DNA from: Eledone cirrhosa
Taxonomy: Eukaryota
Reading direction: 5' to 3'
Assembly (NCBI GenBank): GCA_964016885.1
Contig: OZ024741.1
Location: 166,098,001 to 166,162,000 of the forward strand
DNA: 64,000 bases
Shown: positions 3,525 through 62,845 of the stretch, in pieces
Position numbering within the stretch: the first letter of the stretch is position 1
Layout: every line of letters starts with the position of its first letter
Made by a program: the position numbers and the translations under genes
Notes under the pieces: model-generated
Told to the model about the DNA's origin: nothing
What the model saw: the letters and a program-made list of their open reading frames with translations, nothing else
Databases searched by the model: none

Positions 3525-6995
<3,471 letters not shown>

Positions 6996-27369: not shown

Positions 27370-29205
27370 ATGGCGGAAAAGATGGCAGACATGTCTGCCA
27401 TTAGCTCTGCCACGCCCCTCAAGTCTGAAGAACAAAAAATAATTACAACAAAATTAAACATTGAAACAAACAAACAAAATGAAAAAACAAATGTTAAGGA
27501 AAATGAGCAAACAGAAAACAAACAAACAGAAAATAATACAAATAACGACAGGGCAACTTTCGCCCAGAAAACAAAACAATCCATTACATACACACCAATT
27601 GACCTAACTGCCGCCAGAGAAAAACTGGCCGAAGCAAAGAAACACATTGTTTTGGGGGAGAACGGAATGTTTTCCATTAACTCCCCCCCAGAATTCAAGA
27701 AAGCCAGAGCAGAAAACACAGTTCTATACAGAACTATACTGAACCAGACAAGAAAGCCAGCACAGCCCAGCCAAATGGAAATAGAGTTAGTCCTAAAAGA
27801 CTATATGAAGAATATTCTCTTCATACGAAAGGACCGACTCTATGGCAGCATTTCGGTCCTAACAAGAGACAAAGAAACGGCGGAGAAGCTTTCCCTAAGC
27901 CCACTCTCGTCGACAACATATAGCTTCTATCCCTCCTACATGGGTAGAAGAACACAGAGAGTAAAAGTAAAAACAATGCTGCCCACAATGGACTTCTGGT
28001 GGGCTATTGCTGGCTTCATTGATATGGGCGAAGACACTATGCTGTCAATGGGGAAGGCAACTGGAGATGCGTTCCTGGGAATGGGCCTCGACATACTAGT
28101 CCAAATGAGGCCCGAAAGAATAGCACAAATCCCGGATCGCATCTGGCTGGATGACCTTACCCCAATAGACATAATTGTAGAGGGGAGAAGACCAGCATGC
28201 TATTTATGCATGGAAAGGGGACACGTTAAGGCTAACTGCCCGAAACGTATCCCCCAAAAAGGACTATTGCCCACACCCACCACAAACAGTACACCAGCAC
28301 CACCCACCTCCAAAAATACGCTAATACCACACACAGCAAACAAAATACAGACACCACCAACCACAAACACAACACAAACATCACCACCACCAGCACCAAA
28401 CACAAGCACGACACAAAAATCACCACCACCAACCACAACACAAACATCACCACCACCATCACCAACCACAAGCACGACACAAACATTACCACCACCACCA
28501 CCACAAAACCCATTCCAAACAAATAATAAAAAAAACAGTAACAAATCTACCCCTACCGCAAAAAAAAAACAACCACACAACACGTCCCTCCCACCTAGCG
28601 CTGAAGAGTTTCCCCCAACTTCTGAAGAAGAAGGAGGAGAAGCCTTCAGACAAGTTAAAAGAAAAAAAAGAAAACACACACCCAGCACACCACAAATAAC
28701 CCACACACAAACACCAACTCCAATCAAAAACACCCCACCCTCAACAAACAAAAATAAATCTGCGCCTCCCCTCTCCGAAACATTGACAGCATCACAAAAA
28801 AAGACGTTGCAATACACATATATAAATAAAGAAAACAAAAAACTGGTTAAATTAATAAACAATAACCCTATGGTGCAGACCGAAGGGCCAAACTTTATCT
28901 CAACAGAGAACTTCACCCATTTAAAAATGATAAAGGTCCCTCTGGACCTTTATCGTTCCTTAAAAGAACAATTTAGACGGGACGTGAGCCCCCCCTGTTT
29001 AAAACCGTTGAATCGCGTCCTCTTGAAAGATTTCCCCATAACCGCCCCTCTCCCTGACACAACTCCAAATACCCCAACCCCACCACACACGTGTACCCCC
29101 ACACCACCACAAAACATCCCTCCACCCAACACACCTGATGCCATGGAAATTACGCAACCCGGAGAGGTAAGTGCTTTTCTTTCTTCACTTTCAACACCAA
29201 AATAG
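27370..29205 (+). CDS. Tx1 ORF1p, gag-like CCHC zinc-knuckle protein
   Basis: First ATG 27370; VEGRRPACYLCMERGHVKANC (CX2CX4HX4C); Pro/Thr-rich tail. Confidence 0.85.
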   Translation: MAEKMADMSAISSATPLKSEEQKIITTKLNIETNKQNEKTNVKENEQTENKQTENNTNNDRATFAQKTKQSITYTPIDLTAAREKLAEAKKHIVLGENGMFSINSPPEFKKARAENTVLYRTILNQTRKPAQPSQMEIELVLKDYMKNILFIRKDRLYGSISVLTRDKETAEKLSLSPLSSTTYSFYPSYMGRRTQRVKVKTMLPTMDFWWAIAGFIDMGEDTMLSMGKATGDAFLGMGLDILVQMRPERIAQIPDRIWLDDLTPIDIIVEGRRPACYLCMERGHVKANCPKRIPQKGLLPTPTTNSTPAPPTSKNTLIPHTANKIQTPPTTNTTQTSPPPAPNTSTTQKSPPPTTTQTSPPPSPTTSTTQTLPPPPPQNPFQTNNKKNSNKSTPTAKKKQPHNTSLPPSAEEFPPTSEEEGGEAFRQVKRKKRKHTPSTPQITHTQTPTPIKNTPPSTNKNKSAPPLSETLTASQKKTLQYTYINKENKKLVKLINNNPMVQTEGPNFISTENFTHLKMIKVPLDLYRSLKEQFRRDVSPPCLKPLNRVLLKDFPITAPLPDTTPNTPTPPHTCTPTPPQNIPPPNTPDAMEITQPGEVSAFLSSLSTPK

Positions 29206-32200: not shown

Positions 32201-32537
32201 CGTCGAACGACTGCTGTCGCGTGTGGCGCCGATTCGATTAACCGCCGAGTCTGTGGTGAACATCAAGCCGCCTCCTCCCTTCAGAAATGAAGCAGAGGCG
32301 GTCTTTCTGTGCGTAATAGCCATGATGAAAGAGGTTGTGTGGTGGACGCGCCTGAAAGGTCTGAGGTCGGGTGACTTTCTCTCCGGCCATCACCTGGTTT
32401 ACTTCTTCCGATACCACTTCGGAAGAAGAATCAGGATGGAGAGAGAAGTGCTTGGTCCCAGACAGTTTTATGAAAGGTGGGTAAAAGAAGCGAGAATGGC
32501 CCGTGTAAATGGGCCTTCTCTCTACATTGTTCTGTAG
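29211..32537 (+). CDS. Tx1 ORF2p: APE endonuclease, RT, C-terminal CCHC
   Basis: CLNARGL, VGDWNG, SYLDRF, SDH; GPGYWKMN; KSPGLDGLP, FRPITLLN, DQSKAFDRV, RQGCP, AYADD; CPRC..ETVAHALVHC; no ATG at the homologous start. Confidence 0.92.
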   Translation: MRVGCLNARGLGSAWKQAKLLSDLRSQSIDVMVVCESRISSVRQLAPAFDDFEMHASLCQPGGGGGGGVAVLLDKRLTLDVQIVHSDPGGRLLVLDVGGGEGGAFRLVGLYAPFGAERADFFQRLETFLGTSRSLLLVGDWNGILDARWDYAGACPDRGGCSSLKGLLDRFDLVDRFRLDCPTAPTWTWANRSGQSRSYLDRFLVRSKDRDVFSCPELIMVGYSDHKLVTCVVNLDRTHRQGPGYWKMNLSLPTKKDYRNRISSLVKMRLTGAIVNSRWWISLKREIRVSSIGYSKELAANRNRRERELTDKLEEAIRSGDVARVLATRTALSQFFDAKHEGCVVRSKIRALGNEGTKAVSWARVTEAKSGIKSTIRSLRDQDGRVILEPERMCETFQRHFARLFGGGGGPDGDVDFGPYLDGLPRLSSGEAECCERPITATEIGEALSQCSRRKSPGLDGLPYELYLAMPVLFSELLEAVYCNWQQNGRIPCSVTKGVVTLVRKDESKGDDLSNFRPITLLNAELQILAKVLAKRLALVVGGLVGDAQTCAIPSRSIHDNLHLMRYIIDRVGYEPGFGGALINLDQSKAFDRVDHGYLDAVLAAAGFGPVFRGWISAMHSGNIYSRIKVNGYLSEPFQITRSIRQGCPFSSLLYVLTLEPLLRKLELLRGIPLEPGLHKAVSAYADDVTVMVADASEIGAIATLLEEYERLTGAKLNQDKSVGLQLGTWRGKPMPLDGVVGRWTEGPVKLLGVWFGPDLQVEKNWGEVTSRVFALTQKWAKCKLSLKGRAEVTNAYIASVIYYRLTVVPCPKEKLTIMERMLFQFLWKKRPPMVRRSICCQHPSKGGLGMPWLLMRRHALRLRHLQVFLNGQPVWAPLTAIWQADPTVSGESTSTFYRGLVASRGDDTLGESLGMEEDELASLFGRTFGPGPMDNFQRSLAWQCYRGALPVREKLYRHGRPGRDPAKKICPRCVRDEETVAHALVHCPGVADLWGYVERLLSRVAPIRLTAESVVNIKPPPPFRNEAEAVFLCVIAMMKEVVWWTRLKGLRSGDFLSGHHLVYFFRYHFGRRIRMEREVLGPRQFYERWVKEARMARVNGPSLYIVL

Positions 32538-32782
32538 GTGAAGAAGTGAAGAGGAAAGGGGGAGCGCCTCCTCTCTGGGCTTCCCCCGCGAAAAGAGTTG
32601 CACACTTTTTGGGGGTATGTGCAATCCCCAACACGCCCCCTCCCTTTTGAGGACTTTTTATTGTTATATTATTATTGTTATTCCTTTTTTTCTTTACTCG
32701 ATTTATGTAAACTCCCCCACTGTGTAAATGTCCCCTTCTTTTGTGCCCTCGTGGCAAATAAATAGAAATTTATCTATCTATC

Positions 32783-33037
32783 TCTATATCAGCCTGTAGG
32801 TTGAGGAAAAGGAGGAGGAGAGGAAAGGAGTACAAACTCTTCGTACTCCTGGAGATGAGGGTTGCACATTTTTTTTCGGGGGTATGTGTTACCCATATAA
32901 ACTGTCTCCTCCTATTGGGGAAATCGACTAACTTTTTAAATTCCATTTGTGATAACATTTTACACGTTTTTATTGTATGTAAACTTTCCCCCTTTGTATT
33001 TGTCCCCTTCTTTTGTGCCCCTGTGGCTAATAAAGAA

Positions 33038-33039
<2 letters not shown>
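32783..33039 (+). mobile_element. Tx1-type 3' UTR fragment followed by (TATC)n
   Basis: Homologous to 32525-32769; ends GTGGCTAATAAAGAAAT|CTATC. Confidence 0.8.
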
Positions 33040-33092
<53 letters not shown>

Positions 33093-35727: not shown

Positions 35728-38700
35728 TTCACCCATTTACCTAGGACAAAACGATCTATCCCCACAAACAGCCACCACCATAATACATACTCTAATTTAA
35801 CACCAACACAACCACCAATAACTCAAACAAGGAATCCACAAATCTGCCGTTTTTCCCTGCGAGACATATTGTGTTTAGACCGGGATTGTCCCTTTACCCA
35901 TCTCCCGGGGACCCGTCGGATAAATGAAAATAAAATTAAAAATAAAAGCAAAAACAAAAACCATAACCTACATAAAAATAACCACTACCACAGTCACCAA
36001 CAGTCTTCTAAACAGGAAACTTCTTCCTCTTTTTTAGCCATAATGAATCTGGCAAAAGAACTGGAAAAAAACATTCGAGCTATCACCCAGCACCACCCTC
36101 CACTATCACCCCACTGCACAAACTCCCATTGCTGCCATTAACAAACAAACAAATTAACAACACACCAAAACAATTAAAACCATCCACTCTCGCCTCTACA
36201 TTTTTGCTTAACGCCCAAGGCATCAGCCCTTCCACCAATACTCAAAAATGGAAGATCAAATTCCTGGAGGACTGGATTGATGTCCATCCAAACCACATCC
36301 CTTTCTTCGTCCTCACTGAAACCCATCTCAGTAACCTCCACTTGGAAGCCGAGGTGAAAGTGAAAAATTTCAAAGCCATCCGTGCTGATCGCGCTGGCAG
36401 AAGAAAGGGCAGAACTGCCATTTATGTCCATAATTCTTTCTCAACAGAGGCTATGAACATATTCACTAATGGATACTGTGAGGCAGTCACTGTATTCAGT
36501 CAAACCAACAACCTATTAGTAGTTGGGCTCTATAGGCCACCCCAAACGCCTGTACCATGCTTCAAGGAATGCCTCAACAGCATAAAGTGTTTCATCCAAG
36601 AGTGTCACCCTGACAACATCTTAATGATGGGGGACTTCAACCTCCCCGGAGTTGACTGGTCCACAAACACCCTGCCACCAGGTTCTTCTGCCTCAACCTC
36701 TGACAGGGAAGCTGTGGAATCGCTTCTTGACTTCATGGATGATTTCTTCCTATCCCAACTAGTGCTCGAACCAACGAGGTGCCACAAAAACGTCCTAGAC
36801 TTAATTTTCAGCAATCACACTGACAATATCCACAATATTGCAGTGGAGAAAACTCTACTCTCTGATCATGACATGGTTCTCTGTGATCTGAGATTCCACC
36901 GTCCAATATACAAACCCAATGTCATCTCTCCTGTCCATCCGTTTGACGCTATGGATTTCCACAATGCAAACTGGGAAGCGATCAGTCATGATCTTGCAGA
37001 TGTCGACTGGTCCTTCACGCACACTCATACACCCACTAACATCAAAAAGTCCTGGCAGACATTTGTGGACACTGTTACAAACATATGTGCTAAACACACC
37101 CCATTAAGAACTATAAACAAATCTAAGAGCAGAATCCCTAGAAATAGAAAAACGCTCATCAGAAAAATTAAGAGAACGAACAAAAAAATCAACAAGCTGA
37201 AATACTGTCAGCAGCAACACATCAACTTGACTGCCATTTCATCACTAGAGATTAAAAAACATAACCTCCAAAACAACATAATGTCCCTCATCAACAATCA
37301 GAGAAGAGCTGAAGAGGCCTGGGCCATTGAGAAGATCAAACTCAATCCCAAAGTGTTCTTTTCATTTGCAAAAAAACACAAAATCACTGGCTCTACTGTT
37401 GGCCCTCTAATTGATGAAAATGGCACTCTTCAAGACAATGCTAAAACCATGGGTGAGATACTGCAGAAACAATACTGCTCTGTTTTCAGCAATCCTGATA
37501 TGGCCGATCTGGGCTGTATCGGCGATGTTACTCCCCATTACACCTTATCGGACATAACGTTTGGCGCCCCTGATGTCTTGGCGGCAATAAAGGAAATCAA
37601 GCATAATTCAGCAGTAGGTCCCGATAGGTTCCCTGCTTGTGTCTTGAAGGCGTGTCAACACCAACTTGCTTTTCCTCTTGCCAATCTGTGGCGGAACTCA
37701 CTGGATGCTGGATATGTGCCAGAAAACCTTCTATCCCAGTCTGTTGTCCCAGTTTTCAAAAAGGGAAACAAATCCCTTGCCGTGAATTACCGTCCAATCT
37801 CACTCACCTCTCATATCATTAAGGTATTTGAGCGAGTGGTGAGATCGCGAATGACCCACTTCCTTGAGAGTAACAATATGCTGAACTCCAACCAGCATGG
37901 ATTCCGTAATGGAAGGGATTGCCTGACGCAACTACTGCATCACTTTGATGACATTTTGAGAGCCTTGGGAGAGGGTTCCAACACTGATGTTATCTACCTT
38001 GATTTCAGCAAGGCCTTTGACAGGGTTGGTCATAACATTCTACTGAGAAAGCTGTCCAATATTGGTGTCACTGGAAAGCTGCTGCAGTGGATCAAGAGCT
38101 TCCTGTCAAACAGAACCCAACATGTTGTATTTGAGGGAGTCAAATCAAGCCCAGCCAAAGTCAGTAGTGGAGTCCCACAAGGCACTGTGTTGGGCCCACT
38201 TCTCTTCATCATCTATATTAATGACATCACTGACATCATCAAACATAGCAACATTAAAATTTTCGCTGATGATTCCAAGCTCCAAAAGGTCATCAATGGC
38301 GTGGATGACCGGATAAGCCTTCAGTCAGACCTACTGGCTGTTACCCAATGGGCAGAAAAGAACAACATGTTACTGAACGAAGACAAATTCGAACTGATCC
38401 ACTTTGGAAAAGAGGATGCTCTGAAACTCCCGTACTCCCTTCCCTCCGGGGAAACTCTCGTGGCATCTAACAACATCAGAGACTTGGGAGTAACCGTGGA
38501 CAGCAACATAAGCTGGACCACGCATATAAGCAGCAAAGTTGACATGGCCCGCAGAATGTGTTCCTGGATCCTCAGAACCTTCCAGTCGAGAGATTCCCGC
38601 ACCATTATCTTTCTCTTCTCTACTTTCGCCCGACCACACCTTGAATACTGTTGTCCACTGTGGTCTCCCCACACGAAACAAAGTATCATGAAACTTGAAG

Positions 38701-39233
38701 CTCCTCAAAGGGCAATCACGAAAAAGATAGATGGCATGTCAGACCTTGACTACTGGGGTCGATTGGAAAACCTGAAACTTTACTCACTCCAACGTCGCCG
38801 TGAGCGTTATATTATCTGCATGATGTGGAAAATGTTCCATCATCACTGCCCAAATGATGTTGGCATCGCCTTCAAGATACACCCAAGGCTTGGGCCCCGT
38901 GCTATCCGTCCCATTCAAAAATCTAAATCGCAACTCATAACAACAATACGGCACAATTATTTCACCTCAATCGGCCCTGCTCTCTTCAACATCACACCAG
39001 GACACGTCAAAACAGAAACTGACCACACAAAATTCAAGAAGTCTTTGGACAAATTCCTCCAAGTAATCCCGGACAAACCACCGACACCCGGATATGTCTC
39101 CGCAAACAGTAATTCTCTTCTCGAATGGGCCATGGTGCCCAAATCCTGAATTGAAAGACTTCGCCAGGTGGTGCTATTAAGTTAGACATGGCCTGGGCCA
39201 ATACTGGCCAAAACATTTCAAAGTTATTCAAAG

Positions 39234-48184: not shown

Positions 48185-48600
48185 ATATCAACATCATTCT
48201 AAAAAATATTGCCTGTACAGGTAATCAAACTGCGTATACATTTTGGGGGGAATATACTGTATATATACATACACACGCACGCACGCACACTCATTAATGT
48301 AATGTATATATATATATGTGTATATCTCTCTCACTATATATATATATATATTACTATGTTAATGTTATTATTATTATTATTATTATTGAATGCCATGGTT
48401 GACGGAGGCTCGGCTCTGTAAGGTATAGTAATTTTTAACCGTTAAAACAATTGTAAATTGTTTAAAACTTGAACCAAATTGTTGATAAAGACACCCTCCT
48501 CCTCGTGAGAGGGGTCTTTCTGTCCGTTATTTGGCCCTTCGGGGTTAAATAACCAGTTATTGGGGTTTTGTACCCAAAATTTCATTTTAAACAAAAAAAC

Positions 48601-50706
48601 ATGGCTACCAAAAAGAAATTTCATACGTCACTCCCACTCATTCCGTCTTCTTCTTCCTCAATCATCACTACAGCAGAGAGAAGATTGTCTCTCTCCCTCC
48701 CTTCTTTAAATGTGTCTCTCTCCCTCCCTTCTCTTTCGCAAGCGACGAAAGAAAAGAAAAGTCTCGTGCAAAGCGTGCAAGGTTTCTCCACGACGACGAC
48801 GACAGCGACGAAACAGGTGTGCGGGAAATACGAAAACCCAGTTCATTCGTCTGACGTCAGGAATAATAGCAGTAGCAGCCGTAATAACAACAGCAACAGT
48901 GACAATGAAAACAACAGTAGCAGCCGCAACAGCATCACCAGCAGCATAAACAACAACAGCATAAACAACAACAGCATTAGCAGCAACACCAACAACAACC
49001 ACAGCAACAGCGGCGGAGGCAGTAGTCGTAGTACCTGCAGCAACAAAAGTACCAGCAGCTCTGACGACAACAACAACAGCAGAGAAAAACCAATCTCATT
49101 TGCAGGTATTGCGAAAAACTTGGAAACAATCCTCATAACAAATGAGGAATTAGAGGAAGCGAAGAAGATGGTGACAAAGAACGGACACCGAGCAATCTGC
49201 AAGGCAGCGAAAAATTTTTTCGAAACCCAAGAGCACTGTACGGTCACGTACCGTACAGTAAGTACAAAATCCCGTAGGGTGGAAAGAGCCACAGAGGCCC
49301 AAATACAAAAAGCCTTGGGGTCTGTGTGGCAGAGGAAAACGCACATCACCCGAGGCAAAAAATACGCCACCGTAGACGTACTTTTTGCCACACCCCAGGA
49401 GGCAAAGGCCCAATCAGTAGTGACCCTAAGGAGCGAGGAAATGGTGTTGGTGCCCTCCTACTGCGGGCAAAAAATTGTGAGGGTCAAACTGACCCACGTC
49501 CCCCCCGGAATGACCCCTTCTTGGCTGGCCGCGTCTGTCCTCGTCGGAATCGAGGACAAAACAACTGTACTGCAAGTACAGAAAAAAGTAAGAGAAGATT
49601 GGGTCGGCTCCTCCATTGAGATGCTAATCCAAACCAACCAGGAGTGCATCGAAGCTATCCCGGATGTGATAGACTTCGATAACGGCACTCAACTGCCCAT
49701 AAGTGTTGAGGGCAAACGCCCGAAATGCTTTCGCTGTGGATCGAAGACTCACCTCAGGGCCTTCTGCAACGAGAAGACCCTGAGAAAGGAGAAAACCCCC
49801 CTCCTTCCGAATCCGGCTCCACGGCTACCAGCAACAGGACAAGCGGCAACCAGGAACGATAGGTCCGTGGCACCCATACCCACTCCACGGAAATCAAAGA
49901 CAGCAGCAGCAGTGGAAATATTAACAACAACAACAGCAATACCAAATGCAGCTGCAACAGAGACTCCAGTGCAAACATCACCAACAACAACAAGTGAAAG
50001 AGTGGAGCTGGTACCCCTCCCCGACCTTACAGAATCAGACATGGAGTGTGAGGTGGGAGAGGGATGGCAAAAGGTCGCAAGAAGGCACAAACGCAGAAGC
50101 AGCGCATCGTCGCCTTTGAAAAGGGAGGAAAGAAATGAGAAAAGGGTAAAGTCTACTGCAAAGAGACCCACAGCAGCAACACCACCAACACCATCACCAC
50201 CCACACCAGCACCACCATCACCACCGGCGACAACCCCACCGCCAACAATACCTTCAACACCACCACCACAAGCACCAACATCGCAAACACAACAACAAAA
50301 CACACACACCCAGCAACAACGACAAGAAAATAGCAGAACCACACCCCACCCCCAGAAAAACAAATGCACGGCAATAAACACACACAACAAGAAACTAATG
50401 ACTTACATAATTGAACACACAGACATTTCACAACAGGACTACATAATACCAGCACCAATCAAAACGCCTACTAACATAAGACTGCTAAAAATAGCACAGA
50501 AACAATACACAAACATTAAAACGAAATTCCCCAACGCAGTTGGTGATTTCAGGGACCTAGGAGGAACCATCAATCGAAGAGTATATTCAGACATTCTCTT
50601 AGAAGAGCCGACGACCAGCCGAAGGGACGATTCAACGGTCCCTTCACCAGACGATCAAGTGAAAAGGGATGTAAAAACCATCCCTCCTCTACCAAAAGTA
50701 CGGTAA
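48601..50706 (+). CDS. Tx1 family B ORF1p (intact), CCHC knuckle
   Basis: ATG 48601; VEGKRPKCFRCGSKTHLRAFC; homologous to family A ORF1. Confidence 0.87.
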   Translation: MATKKKFHTSLPLIPSSSSSIITTAERRLSLSLPSLNVSLSLPSLSQATKEKKSLVQSVQGFSTTTTTATKQVCGKYENPVHSSDVRNNSSSSRNNNSNSDNENNSSSRNSITSSINNNSINNNSISSNTNNNHSNSGGGSSRSTCSNKSTSSSDDNNNSREKPISFAGIAKNLETILITNEELEEAKKMVTKNGHRAICKAAKNFFETQEHCTVTYRTVSTKSRRVERATEAQIQKALGSVWQRKTHITRGKKYATVDVLFATPQEAKAQSVVTLRSEEMVLVPSYCGQKIVRVKLTHVPPGMTPSWLAASVLVGIEDKTTVLQVQKKVREDWVGSSIEMLIQTNQECIEAIPDVIDFDNGTQLPISVEGKRPKCFRCGSKTHLRAFCNEKTLRKEKTPLLPNPAPRLPATGQAATRNDRSVAPIPTPRKSKTAAAVEILTTTTAIPNAAATETPVQTSPTTTSERVELVPLPDLTESDMECEVGEGWQKVARRHKRRSSASSPLKREERNEKRVKSTAKRPTAATPPTPSPPTPAPPSPPATTPPPTIPSTPPPQAPTSQTQQQNTHTQQQRQENSRTTPHPQKNKCTAINTHNKKLMTYIIEHTDISQQDYIIPAPIKTPTNIRLLKIAQKQYTNIKTKFPNAVGDFRDLGGTINRRVYSDILLEEPTTSRRDDSTVPSPDDQVKRDVKTIPPLPKVR

Positions 50707-50741
50707 GTGGTCTTTCCCATCTTTTCCACTCTATTTTAAAC

Positions 50742-53700
50742 ATGACCTCACTCAGAATAGGCAGCATAAATGCGCGTGGCTTGGGGTCGTCATGGAAGCA
50801 GGGTCACCTGCTCAACGACCTCAGGTCACTAAACATAGATGTAGTGGCCATCAGCGAGACCAGAATCTCCGAAGCACGGGCCTTCGCACCGATCTTCGGC
50901 GGCTACGATGTGTACGCATCTCCCAGCCGTCCTGGATCCGGTGGAGGAGTTGCTGTACTTTTTCGGAGAGGTTTGGATCTCGCCATACGGGCCATCTTCC
51001 TGGACCCAGTGGGTAAGCTGGTGGTGCTGGACGTGACCAGCGGAGACGGGCAAGCTTTCAGGCTAGTGGCCGTCTATGCCCCGACAGGAGCAGGGCGGCC
51101 TGATTTCTTCCGGCGTCTGGAGACCTTTCTTGGAACGTCCCGCTCTTTAGTGTTAGTGGGCGACTGGAACGGGATCTTAGATGCACGCTGGGACTGTGTG
51201 GGATTAGCGGATAGGGGTGGAGGGTGCAAGAGCCTCACCAACCTGCTCAGGCGTTTTGAACTGTCTGACAGGTACCGATTGGATTTCCCGAATGTGCCAA
51301 TGTGGACTTGGACAAACCGCATAGGGTCATCCAGATCATATCTAGATAGAGTATTTTGTAGGGAAATAGATAGGTCTAGCATAGGCTGTCCACAATTCAA
51401 GATAGTCAGCTACACGGACCACAAATTCGTGACCTGTGTGCTTGACTTAGATAGGCTTCATAGACGAGGACCCGGCTACTGGAAGCTAAACGCGTCCTTA
51501 CCAGCGCGCAAGGCCTACAGAGACCGGATTAGCGAACTAGTTAAGCGGGCGTTGACGGGGGCCATCGTCAACAACAAGTGGTGGTTTGCTCTGAAAAGAG
51601 CGATTAGAATAGAATCGATTAGGTTTAGTAAGGCTTTAGCAATAGAGAAAAATAGAGCAGAGGGAGAACTAGTTAGAAAATTAGACGAGGCGCTTAGCAA
51701 AGGCATTGCGACCGACGTGCTTGCGGCGAAATTGGCCCTTGACCAATTCTTCAATGCAAAGCACGAAGGCTGCGTTGTCAGAGCTAGGGTGCGTGCTCTC
51801 AGACACGAGGGGACGAAAGCCGTTCAATGGGCCCGAGTGGCGGAGGCGCGTCGTGGCAACAAAGCCACGATCCGGTCTTTGGTGGACCACGACGGGCGCA
51901 TGCTACTCGATCCCGGGCAAATGTGTGAAGCTTTTCAGCGACACTTCGCTCAGCTGTTCGGGGGCAGCGGGGGGCCGGGTAGAGGGATGGACTTTAGTGT
52001 CTACCTCGACGGACTGCCGCGGCTCTCGGCCACTGAGGCGAAGTGTTGCGAAAAGCCGATAACAGCCGCTGAAGTACGGGAGGCAATGACTGTCTGCACA
52101 AGGGGTAAATCGCCTGGTTTGGATGGTCTGCCCTATGAACTTTACGTACAGATGCCAGACTTGTTCGGAGGCCTCTTGGCGGACGTCTACTGCAACTGGC
52201 AACAGAACGGGAGAATTCCCAGTTCTGTGAGCCGAGGAGCGGTGGCACTGCTGAGAAAGGATCCGAACAAGGGGGATAACATAGACAATTTCCGGCCCAT
52301 AACTCTGCTAAACACAGAGTTTAAGATTTTGGCCAAGGTGCTAGCAAAGAGGTTGGCGCTTGTCGTTGGTGGTCTGGTGGGAGAGGCGCAGACATGCGCC
52401 ATTCCCGACAGATCCATCCACGACAACCTCCACCTCATGCGATACATCGTAGAGAGGGTAGCTAGGGAACCTGGCACGGGTGGGTCCTTGATCAATTTAG
52501 ATCAGTCGAAAGCTTTCGATAGGGTCGACCATCGTTACCTAGCGGCAGTCCTGAGGGCGGCTGGCTTTGGGCCCGTCTTCAGAGGCTGGATCGCTGCCAT
52601 GCACAGCGACATCTGCTCTGTGGTGAGAGTGAACGGTCACCTGTCGGAACCGTTCAACATCATGCGCTCGGTCCGCCAAGGATGTCCCCTCTCGTCCCTC
52701 TTGTACGTATTGACTCTCGAGCCATTACTGCACAAACTGGAGACGTTGAGGGGAGTCCCGCGCGAACTAGGATGCGGAAGATCCGTGTCAGCATATGCGG
52801 ACGATGTCACCGTAGTGGTGTCGAACGCCAAACACATCGAGGCGATCGGCACTACACTAAGAGAATACGAAGCGGTGACAGGAGCAATGATCAACCAGGA
52901 AAAGTCAGTGGGCCTGCAGCTCGGCACCTGGAGAGGCAGGTCCATGCCGTCCAACAGCGTCGTCGGGCGCTGGACGGACGGACCGGTTAAATTGCTAGGG
53001 GTCTGGTTCGGTCCGGACCTCCAGACGGACAAAAACTGGGACGAGGTGACGAGCAGGGTGGCTTCTCTCACCCAGAAATGGGCGGAGAGGAAGCTATCCC
53101 TGAAAGGTCGAGCGGAGGTGGCTAACGCGTACATCGCGTCTGTCATCTGCTACCGCCTAACCGTCGTACCTTGTCCTAAGCCTCGCCTGACTGCGCTGGA
53201 GCGTTTGCTCTTTCGCTTTTTGTGGAAGGGACGCGCTCCGATGGTCAGGCGGTCCATCTGTTGTCAACACCCGCTACGTGGAGGGCTGGGCATGCCGTGG
53301 CTGATGATGCGCAGGCACGCGCTCAGGCTACGACATCTCCACCTCTTCCTCGACGGTGATCAGGTGTGGTCGCCGTTTGCTAGACGCGTTTTTCCCCAGC
53401 TCGTTTCCTTGACGGAGCTGCAGTCCTGGGTCAAGCGAAGACCGAGAGGGAGCGCCTGGAGACTGGAATGTCTTCAGGCGCTCACAGCCCTCGACCAATC
53501 GGGCAATGTGATCGGTGGAAACTCCACCTCGGCGTTCTATAGAGGATTAGTGGAGGGGAAGAGCGACGACGTACTTGGGGAAACTCTAGGCGTCGACGAA
53601 AATCAACTAGCCAATCTCTTCGGAAGAACTTTCGGGCCAGGGCCTATGGACAACTTCCAGAAATCTCTGGCCTGGCAGTGCTACCGAGGAGCCTTGCCAG

Positions 53701-54047
53701 TTCGGGATAAACTCTACAGGCATGGAGGTGCCGTCAGCCGGGCATGTCCGAGATGCGCGCTGGGCGACGAAACCGTCCTGCACGCACTCGTCCAGTGTCC
53801 GAAAATTGCTGACTTGTGGGTTTATGTCGAACACCTGCTGTCGCGTTTAGGACGGATCCAGCTATCATCTGAGTCTATCGTGAGGATTGCCCCGCCCTCC
53901 TCCTTTAGCCGGGAAGGGCAGGCAGTTTTTATCTGTCTGGTGGCCATGGCGAAAGAGATAGTATGGTGGACACGTTTGAAAGGGCTGAAGACGAGCACTT
54001 ACCTCTTCGGTGATGCTCTGATTGACTTTTTTTCAAATTTCATTTGA
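50742..54047 (+). CDS. Tx1 family B ORF2p (APE-RT-CCHC); last ~43 aa out of frame
   Basis: INARGL, SETR, GDWNG, YLDRV, TDH, AYADD, CPRC..HALVQC; conserved C-terminus continues in another frame to TAA 54161-54163. Confidence 0.92.
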   Translation: MTSLRIGSINARGLGSSWKQGHLLNDLRSLNIDVVAISETRISEARAFAPIFGGYDVYASPSRPGSGGGVAVLFRRGLDLAIRAIFLDPVGKLVVLDVTSGDGQAFRLVAVYAPTGAGRPDFFRRLETFLGTSRSLVLVGDWNGILDARWDCVGLADRGGGCKSLTNLLRRFELSDRYRLDFPNVPMWTWTNRIGSSRSYLDRVFCREIDRSSIGCPQFKIVSYTDHKFVTCVLDLDRLHRRGPGYWKLNASLPARKAYRDRISELVKRALTGAIVNNKWWFALKRAIRIESIRFSKALAIEKNRAEGELVRKLDEALSKGIATDVLAAKLALDQFFNAKHEGCVVRARVRALRHEGTKAVQWARVAEARRGNKATIRSLVDHDGRMLLDPGQMCEAFQRHFAQLFGGSGGPGRGMDFSVYLDGLPRLSATEAKCCEKPITAAEVREAMTVCTRGKSPGLDGLPYELYVQMPDLFGGLLADVYCNWQQNGRIPSSVSRGAVALLRKDPNKGDNIDNFRPITLLNTEFKILAKVLAKRLALVVGGLVGEAQTCAIPDRSIHDNLHLMRYIVERVAREPGTGGSLINLDQSKAFDRVDHRYLAAVLRAAGFGPVFRGWIAAMHSDICSVVRVNGHLSEPFNIMRSVRQGCPLSSLLYVLTLEPLLHKLETLRGVPRELGCGRSVSAYADDVTVVVSNAKHIEAIGTTLREYEAVTGAMINQEKSVGLQLGTWRGRSMPSNSVVGRWTDGPVKLLGVWFGPDLQTDKNWDEVTSRVASLTQKWAERKLSLKGRAEVANAYIASVICYRLTVVPCPKPRLTALERLLFRFLWKGRAPMVRRSICCQHPLRGGLGMPWLMMRRHALRLRHLHLFLDGDQVWSPFARRVFPQLVSLTELQSWVKRRPRGSAWRLECLQALTALDQSGNVIGGNSTSAFYRGLVEGKSDDVLGETLGVDENQLANLFGRTFGPGPMDNFQKSLAWQCYRGALPVRDKLYRHGGAVSRACPRCALGDETVLHALVQCPKIADLWVYVEHLLSRLGRIQLSSESIVRIAPPSSFSREGQAVFICLVAMAKEIVWWTRLKGLKTSTYLFGDALIDFFSNFI

Positions 54048-54663
54048 AAAGGAAAATCAGAGTAGAGAAGGAAGTGCTCTCTTCCCAGCATTTTGTTGAA
54101 AGATGGGTGAGAGAAGCAAGAATGGCCCGAGTGAATGGGCCGACTCTGAGTATATATCTGTAAACTAAAGGTGGAAAACTGGGAGAGGGCACTTGCCTTG
54201 GTGGTCAGGGTCATTGTGGCTTTTTACTGGGCTTTCTCCACAAATGTCCCTCCGAAGTCTCCCCCCTATTGGGGAATTTTTCATTGTTATTTTCATTGTT
54301 ATTTTTGTTACATCCTCTGTTTTTGTTTTCTTTACACGCAGAAATGCCCATTTGTACCGTCCTGCATTGTCCTGCACTGTCCTTAATGTCTACTTTATGT
54401 AAACCCTTGTGGTTAATAAAGAAATCATTATTATTATTATTATTATTATTGAATGCCATGGTTGACGGAGGCTCGGCTCTGTAAGGTATAGTAATTTTTA
54501 ACCGTTAAAACAATTGTAAATTGTTTAAAACTTGAACCAAATTGTTGATAAAGACACCCTCCTCCTCGTGAGAGGGGTCTTTCTGTCCGTTATTTGGCCC
54601 TTCGGGGTTAAATAACCAGTTATTGGGGTTTTGTACCCAAAATTTCATTTTAAACAAAAAAAC

Positions 54664-56758
54664 ATGGCTACCAAAAAGAAATTTCATACGTCACTCCCAC
54701 TCATTCCGTCTTCTTCTTCCTCAATCATCACTACAGCAGAGAGAAGATTGTCTCTCTCCCTCCCTTCTTTAAATGTGTCTCTCTCCCTCCCTTCTCTTTC
54801 GCAAGCGACGAAAGAAAAGAAAAGTCTCGTGCAAAGCGTGCAAGGTTTCTCCACGACGACGACGACAGCGACGAAACAGGTGTGCGGGAAATACGAAAAC
54901 CCAGTTCATTCGTCTGACGTCAGGAATAATAGCAGTAGCAGCCGTAAAAACAACAGCAACAGTGACAATGAAAACAACAGTAGCAGCCGCAACAGCATCA
55001 CCAGCAGCATAAACAACAACAGCATTAGCAGCAGCAACACCAACAACAACCACAGCAACAGCGGCGGAGGCAGTAGTCGTAGTACCTGCAGCAACAAAAG
55101 TACCAGCAGCTCTGACGACAACAACAACAGCAGAGAAAAACCAATCTCATTTGCAGGTATTGCGAAAAACTTGGAAACAATCCTCATAACAAATGAGGAA
55201 TTAGAGGAAGCGAAGAAGATGGTGACAAAGAACGGACACCGAGCAATCTGCAAGGCAGCGAAAAATTTTTTCGAAACCCAAGAGCACTGTACGGTCACGT
55301 ACCGTACAGTAAGTACAAAATCCCGTAGGGTGGAAAGAGCCACAGAGGCCCAAATACAAAAAGCCTTGGGGTCTGTGTGGCAGAGGAAAACGCACATCAC
55401 CCGAGGCAAAAAATACGCCACCGTAGACGTACTTTTTGCCACACCCCAGGAGGCAAAGGCCCAATCAGTAGTGACCCTAAGGAGCGAGGAAATGGTGTTG
55501 GTGCCCTCCTACTGCGGGCAAAAAATTGTGAGGGTCAAACTGACCCACGTCCCCCCCGGAATGACCCCTTCTTGGCTGGCCGCGTCTGTCCTCGTCGGAA
55601 TCGAGGACAAAACAACTGTACTGCAAGTACAGAAAAAAAGTAAGAGAAGATTGGGTCGGCTCCTCCATTGAGATGCTAATCCAAACCAACCAGGAGTGCA
55701 TCGAAGCTATCCCGGATGTGATAGACTTCGATAACGGCACTCAACTGCCCATAAGTGTTTAGGGCAAACGCCCGAAATGCTTTCGCTGTGGATCGAAGAC
55801 TCACCTCAGGGCCTTCTGCAACGAGAAGACCCTGAGAAAGGAGAAAACCCCCCTCCTTCCGAATCCGGCTCCACGGCTACCAGCAACAGGACAAGCGGCA
55901 ACCAGGAACGATAGGTCCGTGGCACCCATACCCACTCCACGGAAATCAAAGACAGCAGCAGCAGTGGAAATATTAACAACAACAACAGCAATACCAAATG
56001 CAGCTGCAACAGAGACTCCAGTGCAAACATCACCAACAACAACAAGTGAAAGAGTGGAGCTGGTACCCCTCCCCGACCTTACAGAATCAGACATGGAGTG
56101 TGAGGTGGGAGAGGGATGGCAAAAGGTCGTAAGAAGGCACAAACGCAGAAGCAGCGCATCGTGGCCTTTGAAAAGGGAGGAAAGAAATGAGAAAAGGGTA
56201 AAGTCTACTGCAAAGAGACCCACAGCAGCAACACCACCAACACCATCACCACCCACACCAGCACCACCATCACCACCGGCGACAACCCCACCGCCAACAA
56301 CACGTTCAACACCACCACCACAAGCACCAACATCGCAAACACAACAACAAAACACACACACCCAGCAACAACGACAAGAAAATAGCAGAACCACACCCCA
56401 CCCCCAGAAAAACAAATGCACGGCAATAAATACACACAACAAGAAACTAATGACTTACATAATTGAACACACAGACATTTCACAACAGGACTACATAATA
56501 CCAGCACCAATCAAAACGCCAACTAACATAAGACTGCTAAAAATAGCACAGAAACAATACACAAACATTAAAACGAAATTCCCCAACGCAGTTGGTGATT
56601 TCAGGGACCTAGGAGGAACCATCAATCGAAGAGTATACTCAGACATTCTCTTAGAAGAGCCGACGACCAGCCGAAGGGACGATTCAACGGTCCCTTCACC
56701 AGACGATCAAGTGAAAAGGGATGTAAAAACCATCCCTCCTCTACCAAAAGTACGGTAA
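54664..56758 (+). pseudogene. ORF1 copy 2, disrupted
   Basis: A7 vs A6 frameshift at 55633-55639 and GAG>TAG at 55760. Confidence 0.88.
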
Positions 56759-56793
56759 GTGGTCTTTCCCATCTTTTCCACTCTATTTTAAAC

Positions 56794-59700: not shown

Positions 59701-60099
59701 GACAACTTCCAGAAATCTCTGGCCTGGCAGTGCTACCGAGGAGCCTTGCCAGTTCGGGATAAACTCTACAGGCATGGAGGTGCCGTCAGCCGGGCATGTC
59801 CGAGATGCGCGCTGGGCGACGAAACCGTCCTGCACGCACTCGTCCAGTGTCCGAAAATTGCTGACTTGTGGGTTTATGTCGAACACCTGCTGTCGCGTTT
59901 AGGACGGATCCAGCTATCATCTGAGTCTATCGTGAGGATTGCCCCGCCCTCCTCCTTTAGCCGGGAAGGGCAGGCAGTTTTTATCTGTCTGGTGGCCATG
60001 GCGAAAGAGATAGTATGGTGGACACGTTTGAAAGGGCTGAAGACGAGCACTTACCTCTTCGGTGATGCTCTGATTGACTTTTTTTCAAATTTCATTTGA
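56794..60099 (+). CDS. Tx1 family B ORF2p copy 2
   Basis: 1101 aa, near-identical to copy 1 (DPVG vs DPEG); same C-terminal frameshift. Confidence 0.92.
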   Translation: MTSLRIGSINARGLGSSWKQGHLLNDLRSLNIDVVAISETRISEARAFAPIFGGYDVYASPSRPGSGGGVAVLFRRGLDLAIRAIFLDPEGKLVVLDVTSGDGQAFRLVAVYAPTGAGRPDFFRRLETFLGTSRSLVLVGDWNGILDARWDCVGLADRGGGCKSLTNLLRRFELSDRYRLDFPNVPMWTWTNRIGSSRSYLDRVFCREIDRSSIGCPQFKIVSYTDHKFVTCVLDLDRLHRRGPGYWKLNASLPARKAYRDRISELVKRALTGAIVNNKWWFALKRAIRIESIRFSKALAIEKNRAEGELVRKLDEALSKGIATDVLAAKLALDQFFNAKHEGCVVRARVRALRHEGTKAVQWARVAEARRGNKATIRSLVDHDGRMLLDPGQMCEAFQRHFAQLFGGSGGPGRGMDFSVYLDGLPRLSATEAKCCEKPITAAEVREAMTVCTRGKSPGLDGLPYELYVQMPDLFGGLLADVYCNWQQNGRIPSSVSRGAVALLRKDPNKGDNIDNFRPITLLNTEFKILAKVLAKRLALVVGGLVGEAQTCAIPDRSIHDNLHLMRYIVERVAREPGTGGSLINLDQSKAFDRVDHRYLAAVLRAAGFGPVFRGWIAAMHSDICSVVRVNGHLSEPFNIMRSVRQGCPLSSLLYVLTLEPLLHKLETLRGVPRELGCGRSVSAYADDVTVVVSNAKHIEAIGTTLREYEAVTGAMINQEKSVGLQLGTWRGRSMPSNSVVGRWTDGPVKLLGVWFGPDLQTDKNWDEVTSRVASLTQKWAERKLSLKGRAEVANAYIASVICYRLTVVPCPKPRLTALERLLFRFLWKGRAPMVRRSICCQHPLRGGLGMPWLMMRRHALRLRHLHLFLDGDQVWSPFARRVFPQLVSLTELQSWVKRRPRGSAWRLECLQALTALDQSGNVIGGNSTSAFYRGLVEGKSDDVLGETLGVDENQLANLFGRTFGPGPMDNFQKSLAWQCYRGALPVRDKLYRHGGAVSRACPRCALGDETVLHALVQCPKIADLWVYVEHLLSRLGRIQLSSESIVRIAPPSSFSREGQAVFICLVAMAKEIVWWTRLKGLKTSTYLFGDALIDFFSNFI

Positions 60100-60715: not shown

Positions 60716-62810
60716 ATGGCTACCAAAAAGAAATTTCATACGTCACTCCCACTCATTCCGTCTTCTTCTTCCTCAATCATCACTACAGCAGAGAGAAGAT
60801 TGTCTCTCTCCCTCCCTTCTTTAAATGTGTCTCTCTCCCTCCCTTCTCTTTCGCAAGCGACGAAAGAAAAGAAAAGTCTCGTGCAAAGCGTGCAAGGTTT
60901 CTCCACGACGACGACGACAGCGACGAAACAGGTGTGCGGGAAATACGAAAACCCAGTTCATTCGTCTGACGTCAGGAATAATAGCAGTAGCAGCCGTAAA
61001 AACAACAGCAACAGTGACAATGAAAACAACAGTAGCAGCCGCAACAGCATCACCAGCAGCATAAACAACAACAGCATTAGCAGCAGCAACACCAACAACA
61101 ACCACAGCAACAGCGGCGGAGGCAGTAGTCGTAGTACCTGCAGCAACAAAAGTACCAGCAGCTCTGACGACAACAACAACAGCAGAGAAAAACCAATCTC
61201 ATTTGCAGGTATTGCGAAAAACTTGGAAACAATCCTCATAACAAATGAGGAATTAGAGGAAGCGAAGAAGATGGTGACAAAGAACGGACACCGAGCAATC
61301 TGCAAGGCAGCGAAAAATTTTTTCGAAACCCAAGAGCACTGTACGGTCACGTACCGTACAGTAAGTACAAAATCCCGTAGGGTGGAAAGAGCCACAGAGG
61401 CCCAAATACAAAAAGCCTTGGGGTCTGTGTGGCAGAGGAAAACGCACATCACCCGAGGCAAAAAATACGCCACCGTAGACGTACTTTTTGCCACACCCCA
61501 GGAGGCAAAGGCCCAATCAGTAGTGACCCTAAGGAGCGAGGAAATGGTGTTGGTGCCCTCCTACTGCGGGCAAAAAATTGTGAGGGTCAAACTGACCCAC
61601 GTCCCCCCCGGAATGACCCCTTCTTGGCTGGCCGCGTCTGTCCTCGTCGGAATCGAGGACAAAACAACTGTACTGCAAGTACAGAAAAAAAGTAAGAGAA
61701 GATTGGGTCGGCTCCTCCATTGAGATGCTAATCCAAACCAACCAGGAGTGCATCGAAGCTATCCCGGATGTGATAGACTTCGATAACGGCACTCAACTGC
61801 CCATAAGTGTTTAGGGCAAACGCCCGAAATGCTTTCGCTGTGGATCGAAGACTCACCTCAGGGCCTTCTGCAACGAGAAGACCCTGAGAAAGGAGAAAAC
61901 CCCCCTCCTTCCGAATCCGGCTCCACGGCTACCAGCAACAGGACAAGCGGCAACCAGGAACGATAGGTCCGTGGCACCCATACCCACTCCACGGAAATCA
62001 AAGACAGCAGCAGCAGTGGAAATATTAACAACAACAACAGCAATACCAAATGCAGCTGCAACAGAGACTCCAGTGCAAACATCACCAACAACAACAAGTG
62101 AAAGAGTGGAGCTGGTACCCCTCCCCGACCTTACAGAATCAGACATGGAGTGTGAGGTGGGAGAGGGATGGCAAAAGGTCGTAAGAAGGCACAAACGCAG
62201 AAGCAGCGCATCGTGGCCTTTGAAAAGGGAGGAAAGAAATGAGAAAAGGGTAAAGTCTACTGCAAAGAGACCCACAGCAGCAACACCACCAACACCATCA
62301 CCACCCACACCAGCACCACCATCACCACCGGCGACAACCCCACCGCCAACAACACGTTCAACACCACCACCACAAGCACCAACATCGCAAACACAACAAC
62401 AAAACACACACACCCAGCAACAACGACAAGAAAATAGCAGAACCACACCCCACCCCCAGAAAAACAAATGCACGGCAATAAATACACACAACAAGAAACT
62501 AATGACTTACATAATTGAACACACAGACATTTCACAACAGGACTACATAATACCAGCACCAATCAAAACGCCAACTAACATAAGACTGCTAAAAATAGCA
62601 CAGAAACAATACACAAACATTAAAACGAAATTCCCCAACGCAGTTGGTGATTTCAGGGACCTAGGAGGAACCATCAATCGAAGAGTATACTCAGACATTC
62701 TCTTAGAAGAGCCGACGACCAGCCGAAGGGACGATTCAACGGTCCCTTCACCAGACGATCAAGTGAAAAGGGATGTAAAAACCATCCCTCCTCTACCAAA
62801 AGTACGGTAA
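60716..62810 (+). pseudogene. ORF1 copy 3, disrupted as in copy 2
   Basis: Same A7 frameshift and TAG (61812). Confidence 0.88.
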
Positions 62811-62845
62811 GTGGTCTTTCCCATCTTTTCCACTCTATTTTAAAC

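Follow-up and report, generated by a model that had tools for sequence, protein, structure and literature searches.

LINEs are regarded as intron-less elements, in which the excess of ORF1p is ascribed to inefficient reinitiation at ORF2 and splicing is an accident that yields dead copies. In an array of LINE copies from Eledone cirrhosa the stop codon of ORF1 lies inside a 5' splice-site motif, which raises the question of whether this motif serves the element and by which partner site it acts. The window, i.e. the whole stretch of DNA analysed, comprises 64,000 nucleotides of contig OZ024741.1. The initial annotation had proposed a splice from this donor to an acceptor just past ORF2, by which ORF1p might acquire a membrane anchor. 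The reading we prefer, at about even odds (roughly 0.5), is that this Tx1-like LINE possesses a copia-like switch to an ORF1-only mRNA, with the ORF1-end donor gated by a long-range RNA helix.

The first array copy of the element, which we call family B, occupies positions 48388..54450 of the forward strand, on which all features below are located. The copies are arranged head to tail with a period of about 6,052, and the array extends past the window edge. (ATT)n flanks the element on both sides; the copy is inserted in and ends in this repeat, a microsatellite preference seen qualitatively. ORF1 (48601..50706, 701 aa) has a CCHC-type knuckle visible in its translation. CX2CX4HX4C is readable in ORF1 of both family B and a second family of the window, family A; the zf-CCHC profile stays below the cut-off in A and is absent in B, and ORF1 has no PDB match. 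ORF2 (50742..54163, with the family stop at 54161-54163) encodes an APE endonuclease, a reverse transcriptase (RT) and a C-terminal zf-RVT (Pfam PF03372, PF00078 and PF13966), and its best PDB match is human L1 ORF2p (E about 1e-51). In copies 1 and 2 of the window, 2 extra bases near 54027 cause a premature ORF2 stop (54047 in copy 1). A poly(A) signal lies at 54415..54420, and an Rfam search returned microsatellite noise only. We call the element Tx1-like on account of its architecture. Kibi and Koshi, described as Tx1-clade (L1 group) LINEs targeting microsatellites, likewise have two ORFs, the second encoding APE, RT and zf-RVT, insert into microsatellites and occur in tandem (PMC4494074). 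Octopus vulgaris has L1-Tx1 families listed as active (PMC13282606).

The donor motif spans 50701..50708 in phase 2, with GT at 50703-50704 and the ORF1 TAA (50704-50706) inside it. It recurs in array copy 2 (56753..56760, GT at 56755), whose junction and 3' end are identical to copy 1, and in copy 3 (62805..62812, GT at 62807), at the coordinates originally given. The annotation had also described the same donor and acceptor bracket around ORF2 in both families. Donor and pyrimidine tract do recur in family A (29165..29172, GT at 29167); the acceptor differs between A and B. The similar distance to ORF2 holds as well, GT lying 39 nt upstream of the ORF2 ATG in B and 36 nt upstream of the corresponding start position in A, where there is no ATG. 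The ORF1 stop inside the donor does not extend to family A, since the donor is there located within ORF1 in phase 0 and ORF1 continues for 12 codons.

Comparison of lineages supports the claim of a conserved splice-type signal where ORF1 ends. The donor is kept in all 23 lineage representatives and is found in phases 0, 1 and 2, so that it is not merely stop-codon context. It scores at least 8/9 in 22/23 representatives, against a background of 18 such sites per 122,745 antisense bases. Across these lineages, whose ORF2s have diverged by up to about 33%, no change occurs at positions -1, +1, +2 and +6, and 22 of the 23 have G at +5; of fourfold sites only 11/65 are invariant in the same comparison. 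Variation at +3/+4 is mostly A/G, and conservation drops outside -2..+6. Strong donor sites elsewhere on the sense strand number 36 (18 on the antisense strand), i.e. there is no sense-strand depletion. Judged from these alignments, the ORF1-end donor is more than chance. Among 28 distant metagenome relatives only one carries a donor at the ORF1 stop; the other 27, unlike this element, lack it.

The partner suggested by RNA folding is the start of the 3' UTR. A predicted helix pairs the donor and its pyrimidine spacer (50702..50730) with 54170..54203, about 3.5 kb away, and thereby would loop out ORF2. A lineage's own ORF2-stop window is the best pairing partner of the donor region in 19/23 lineages, and the pairing reaches z below -2 against dinucleotide shuffles in 18/23. 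Complementarity is clade-specific, the own clade being the best in 7/9. The helix appears in the whole-region fold of families B and F and is absent from that of family A. Folded alone, the 3' UTR is not unusually structured (z 0.46).

Candidate acceptors are less uniform. The AG of the initial annotation (54169..54170) lies 7 nt past the family ORF2 stop as described, but it is weak (rank 37 of 260 AGs) and therefore not credible as an acceptor, while rank 1 of the 260 is held by the AG at 54340..54341. The proposed link between the donor and the end of ORF2 is thus supported, though at 54170, the base of the helix 3' strand, it consists of predicted RNA pairing. Nor do both families share one acceptor: in a family-A copy the best-scoring AG (rank 1/258) is the ORF2 TAG stop itself (the stop, together with the beginning of the sequence predicted to pair in the helix, occupies 32535..32580), and B-type 3' ends read TAA there. 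Among about 255 AGs, the one at the ORF2 stop holds a rank of 1-5 in 11/20 TAG lineages and is weak (6-41) in the other nine; in the three TAA lineages the top-ranked acceptor lies within the 3' UTR. A phase-matched stop after the acceptor, predicted beforehand, was found in only 5/11 new lineages and in 13/20 overall. Splicing to 54341 would add 20 non-hydrophobic residues up to a stop at 54400-54402; this soluble tail keeps its stop in 28/29 B-type copies. The high score of 54341 may reflect only a T-rich UTR.

From donor, helix and acceptors we propose the following course of events. As the helix could not close before the 3' UTR is transcribed, U1 would probably occupy the exposed donor during transcription. 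Once closed, the predicted helix would mask the donor, and these molecules would remain full length and act as ORF2 message and template. From an unmasked donor ORF2 would likely be spliced out, giving an ORF1-only mRNA; such remaining molecules would be spliced to the ORF2 stop codon in TAG families and to 54341 in family B, where a soluble ORF1p with the 20 additional residues would result. The ORF1-only mRNA would provide excess ORF1p, as the GAG-only RNA of copia does for its element.

Genomic copies of such spliced RNA were searched for. Among 12 variant family-B junctions none was an ORF1-to-3' UTR spliced copy, compared with 1,194 intact junctions, and none was found without ORF2 in families A, D, G, E/H, C and L. 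A protein search with ORF1 for spliced C-termini gave no match. Assembled contigs aligned to family B (four sets) and to families G and C (two of these sets) contained no GT..AG joint at a donor; one set, of conjectural RNA origin, did not reach the donors, and this result weighs neither for nor against splicing. One apparently intron-less copy (L229) is an ordinary deletion of an older family whose relatives mostly retain the donor. Two others (L293, L392) are deletions that begin at the donor, one base off a clean splice; the search patterns force breaks at this place, and they were not counted. Cis-preference could be the reason why spliced copies are absent.

Their absence is also what one would expect if the donor bound U1 snRNP and were seldom spliced. 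U1 would then guard the nascent RNA against premature polyadenylation until the 3' UTR helix displaces it, and the full-length RNA would be completed and exported unspliced. Conservation of the donor far above that of any acceptor agrees with this, as does an AATAAA in the 500 nt preceding the donor in 18/23 lineages, and in EVD donor-bound U1 is described as suppressing premature termination (PMC5580714). The upstream AATAAA may, however, merely reflect an A-rich ORF1, and within ORF2 there are few AATAAA that would need protection. This reading also leaves unexplained why the acceptor at the ORF2 stop ranks first in several lineages and why a chimeric joint, treated below, falls at a donor. 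We consider it unlikely, if a serious competitor.

A role of the helix in translation is more doubtful. By covering the ORF1 stop and spacer, the helix would set the ORF2 start beside the ORF2 stop for termination-reinitiation, the donor consensus being secondary. The duplex predicted for lineages N, O, O2 and D does continue far enough to bring the ORF2 start codon into pairing with the region of the ORF2 stop, and an ORF2 AUG is missing from families A and R. Termination-reinitiation is described for SART1 and mammalian L1, with a short spacer from ORF1 stop to ORF2 start, RNA structure implicated and a looping mechanism suggested (PMC5972666). In the present element, by contrast, the second strand is located downstream of the ORF2 stop at a distance of 3.5 kb, and what the helix covers is a splice consensus. 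A helix needed for translation would tolerate compensatory change, yet the U1 footprint is fixed while adjacent paired bases vary.

The membrane-anchored ORF1p of the initial annotation is very improbable. Joining 50702 to 54171 does open 77 codons that end at 54402 and include the hydrophobic stretch quoted for it (19-residue hydropathy maximum 2.96), and the stretch itself is present in 21/29 B-type copies. Of the B-type copies, just 5/29 have the 77-aa form with the stretch, and in 14/29 the frame runs on into the tail with no stop ahead of the poly(A) signal. Most of the hydrophobicity is lost in the five copies whose 3' end is of B' type (maximum 1.5-1.9). All three frames of the T-rich UTR are hydrophobic (19-residue scores 1.7-3.0), so the annotation's own caveat that the tail reflects a T-rich UTR was right. 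In other families the equivalent splice would append between 1 and 79 residues of unrelated sequence, and the poor rank of 54170 and its position at the helix base speak against it too. A 53-nt mini-intron (50703-50755) that joins ORF1 to ORF2 is likewise very improbable: family B does allow an in-frame join and some in-frame AG lies near the ORF2 start in most lineages, but family A has no in-frame AG, the intron would measure only 39 nt in family D, the AG is a conserved Arg codon, and intronless copies, expected as the RNA would copy itself in cis, number 0 against the 1,194 intact junctions.

Concerning the origin of family B, its sequence identifies it as a chimera, in which the ORF1 of an older family, T, ending at its own donor (50659), is joined to a further family, B'. 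Family-B ORF1 is T-type (87-93% identity) up to 50659 and then B'-type (92-96%), and the switch is located exactly at the T donor, with 2 letters shared to the left of the joint and 0 to the right. The joint 50659/50660 (50658..50660) unites the end of the T donor exon with B' sequence that begins just after an AG. The following 43 nt (50660..50702) are the end of the B' ORF1 and were brought in together with the B' donor. This segment carries an extra base. The family headed by the joint has over 2,000 copies. Either a fossil splice or a template switch could have left this joint. Because its AG is a very poor acceptor (rank 16/19 here; in five B' copies it holds ranks 16-23 among 18-24 AGs nearby), a template switch accounts for it about equally well. 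Under the copia-like switch, family B may itself have arisen because the donor was occasionally used across a head-to-tail array. The fuller proposal is tentative: the 3' UTR would be a delayed antisense clamp on the ORF1-stop donor that sets ORF1-only messages apart from full-length templates, and splicing from the same donor across arrays would have grafted promoter and ORF1 of one family onto the ORF2 of another, giving birth to family B by spliceosomal exon shuffling, which would then be a way in which new autonomous LINE families arise.

The closest parallels are the GAG-only RNA of Drosophila copia and the shGAG RNA of Arabidopsis EVD, in which a 5' splice site ends the structural gene and splicing removes or disables the enzyme gene (PMC5580714). 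The element would work like these without being a member of their group: copia and EVD are described as LTR elements in which a single ORF encodes GAG-POL and spliced RNA has been demonstrated (PMC5580714), whereas here a non-LTR element already ends ORF1 with a separate stop, the 3' UTR would mask the donor, and splicing is a proposal. In human L1, SpIREs arise by splicing within the 5' UTR or into ORF1, are retrotransposed copies of spliced LINE RNA and are considered evolutionary dead ends (PMC5860796). The joint 50659/50660 resembles them in its position exactly at a donor exon end; unlike SpIREs, it connects two families where ORF1 ends and stands at the head of a large family, and its splice origin is uncertain. 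Our literature search on Tx1-clade LINEs found no ORF1-stop splice donor and no ORF2-closing helix.

New here is the recognition of family B as a chimera of two older families. If the proposed switch is true, a fixed, structure-gated donor would represent a LINE converging on the strategy of copia, and it would offer a concrete mechanism for the replacement of ORF1 and 5' UTR between LINE families.

The splice donor at the end of ORF1 in family B (48388..54450, forward strand; donor GT at 50703) may act as a helix-gated switch between a full-length RNA and an ORF1-only mRNA, a reading to which we give a probability of about one half. The donor, its conservation, its complementarity to the 3' UTR and a chimeric joint shortly upstream, at 50659, are established parts, and the helix between donor and 3' UTR is predicted from folding. 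Three copies of a two-ORF non-LTR retrotransposon follow one another head to tail (period ~6,052), and the site belongs to the first of them; ORF2 of the element carries APE, RT and zf-RVT domains and has human L1 ORF2p as its best match among solved structures. We take the element to be Tx1-like, a label based on architecture. (ATT)n is both the insertion site and the terminal sequence of the copies. The genome of 3.0 Gb contains 1,194 exact donor junctions of family B. Past the window, two or more further copies extend the array (L361). Copies 1 and 2 have in common two extra bases (54027-54047, 60079-60099) that shorten ORF2 by 38 aa, and copies 2 and 3 an ORF1 frameshift (55633 region). 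At the 5' end of family B (48390-48430) are a pair of upstream ATGs and, at 48422/48423, a site resembling a donor. Elsewhere in the window are found an unrelated LINE ORF2 (36012-39149, forward strand; RVT_1, Exo_endo_phos_2), a Helitron-like fragment (3683-5458, reverse strand) and, directly behind the tail of family A, a short family C 3' end (32785-33040) starting ~15 nt before the ORF2 stop of C.

The coordinates quoted in the initial annotation were all confirmed in the window. Its claim of one donor/acceptor bracket in both families needs correction: family A differs in donor phase, ORF2 start and acceptor. The A donor is in phase 0 within ORF1, no ATG is present at its ORF2, and the TAG that stops ORF2 is itself the candidate acceptor of A, a place occupied by TAA in B-type 3' ends. 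The identical A junction recurs in at least 40 copies. In families A and R, ATA or ACA replaces AUG at the start of an otherwise intact ORF2 (29203-29205; L234-L239, L338-L340 outside the window), which suggests AUG-independent reinitiation.

ORF2-start patterns blind to the donor yielded 3,798, 2,262 and 876 additional junctions. The junction was present in 81 of the 85 stretches examined, 76 of these 81 with an ORF1-end donor of at least 7/9; the five others (L229, L247, L337, L345, L353) are each a single decayed, deleted or truncated copy. Among 23 lineages, represented by one copy each with ORF2 identity down to ~67%, donor positions -1, +1, +2 and +6 never vary, G stands at +5 in 22 and A at -2 in 21, and +3 is A or G. 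Conservation falls beyond the donor footprint, and only 11/65 fourfold-degenerate ORF2 sites are invariant. Judged from these comparisons, the donor is under constraint, and since it occurs in phases 2, 1 and 0 it is a nucleotide signal rather than the context of a stop codon. Of 28 distant metagenome relatives, L147 alone (ORF2 identity 28%, ORF2 stop TAA) has a donor where ORF1 stops; there, a donor-like site at 1925-1940 contains the stop. The conserved donor might also serve U1 binding with little splicing, a possible but less probable explanation.

The stretch 50702-50730 is predicted to pair with a strand beginning at 54170. Across the 23 lineages, own pairs averaged -41.8 kcal/mol versus -33.2 for cross pairs, the best partner was the own ORF2-stop window in 19, and z was below -2 against dinucleotide shuffles in 18. 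The own clade was the best partner in 7/9 clades (permutation p 3e-6, relatedness ignored). Whole-region folds form the helix in B (32 pairs) and F (39 pairs); that of family A does not. Mosaic elements with crossovers inside ORF2 were observed (L218, L230, L346, L350, L352), and mosaics with a foreign 3' end have a weaker predicted helix (family I, -30 with a B-type versus -37 with a TAG-type end). A small hairpin at 54124-54141 within the final ORF2 codons, in a stretch conserved at the nucleotide level across families, may be part of a 3' recognition element. That the helix serves to control translation is unlikely.

On the acceptor side, 54170 had been proposed as acceptor; generic acceptor weights rank it 37th of 260 AGs downstream of the family B donor, and 54341 first. 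On the folding model, 54170 would be the base of the predicted helix strand rather than an acceptor. The membrane-anchored ORF1p derived from this acceptor is very improbable: among 29 copies scored (of 30 loci with near-intact ORF2), the 77-aa hydrophobic form occurs in 5, and 14 enter the tail without a stop. The hydrophobic stretch is retained in 21/29, and in the five B'-type ends most of the hydrophobicity is lost. Hydrophobicity is common to all three tail frames (1.73, 2.16, 2.96), the result expected from a T-rich UTR, which bears out the caveat originally attached to the claim. Read on from 54341, 28/29 copies have 20 polar residues followed by a stop. In the 20 TAG lineages, the ORF2-stop AG is among the top five in 11 and stands at rank 6-41 in the other 9. 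It was predicted in advance that the nearest stop downstream of this AG would match the donor phase; this was true in 5/11 new lineages, and these five are closely related to the families that prompted the prediction (13/20 lineages overall, with J taken as phase 2). With mixed ranks and a half-failed phase rule, the acceptor side is only suggestive.

Screens of variant junctions in families B (12 variants), A (2), D (2), G (8), E/H (12), C (20) and L (35, 30 of them read as loci), with patterns mostly detecting about three quarters of arbitrary joins, revealed neither an ORF1-to-3' UTR join nor loss of a mini-intron. A mini-intron fusing ORF1 to ORF2 is hardly credible, since its RNA would copy itself and intronless copies should be seen. 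Given the cis-preference of LINE retrotransposition (PMC5860796), absent copies count only weakly against ORF2 skipping. Two single copies (L392, L293) have a deletion that runs from the donor into the first part of ORF2, with junctions near position 1520; each is one base away from a clean splice and was rejected as a spliced copy.

Family B is, by sequence comparison, a chimera joined at a donor. Upstream of 50659 it is 87-93% identical to T-family ORF1 (30 of 54 T loci examined) and ~60% to B'; from 50658 onward it is 92-96% identical to B' and ~80% to T. The F/T exon-end pattern gave 2,417 matches, and each of the 30 loci inspected belonged to family B. The switch point is exactly the T donor exon end and directly follows an AG in the tail of the B' ORF1; two letters are common to both sequences there. 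F, F3 and T carry their donor at the homologous position, which makes B the derived form. As first joined, ORF1 would have stopped one base upstream of the B' donor, leaving a usable protein. By a rough estimate, a break falling at random within the final 100-300 nt would hit the donor 1-3% of the time. The joint is a single event, for which splicing and a template switch of the reverse transcriptase at the edge of the helix stand nearly even: switching would be expected to give the same joint, and the very poor rank of the AG there (16/19) counts against splicing.

In the full texts covered, outside which lie most subscription papers and Repbase reports, no such donor or helix is reported for a Tx1/L1-type element. 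Splicing of TART is reportedly the topic of one paper. The nearest LINE precedent is the SpIREs, which are dead ends (PMC5860796). The element would work like copia GAG-only RNA and EVD shGAG (PMC5580714), without belonging to that group. In the helix-gated switch, U1 would occupy the donor while it is exposed; a 3' UTR that clamps the donor in time would give full-length RNA, and one that loses the race would give an ORF1-only mRNA via the ORF2-stop AG, or in family B via 54341.
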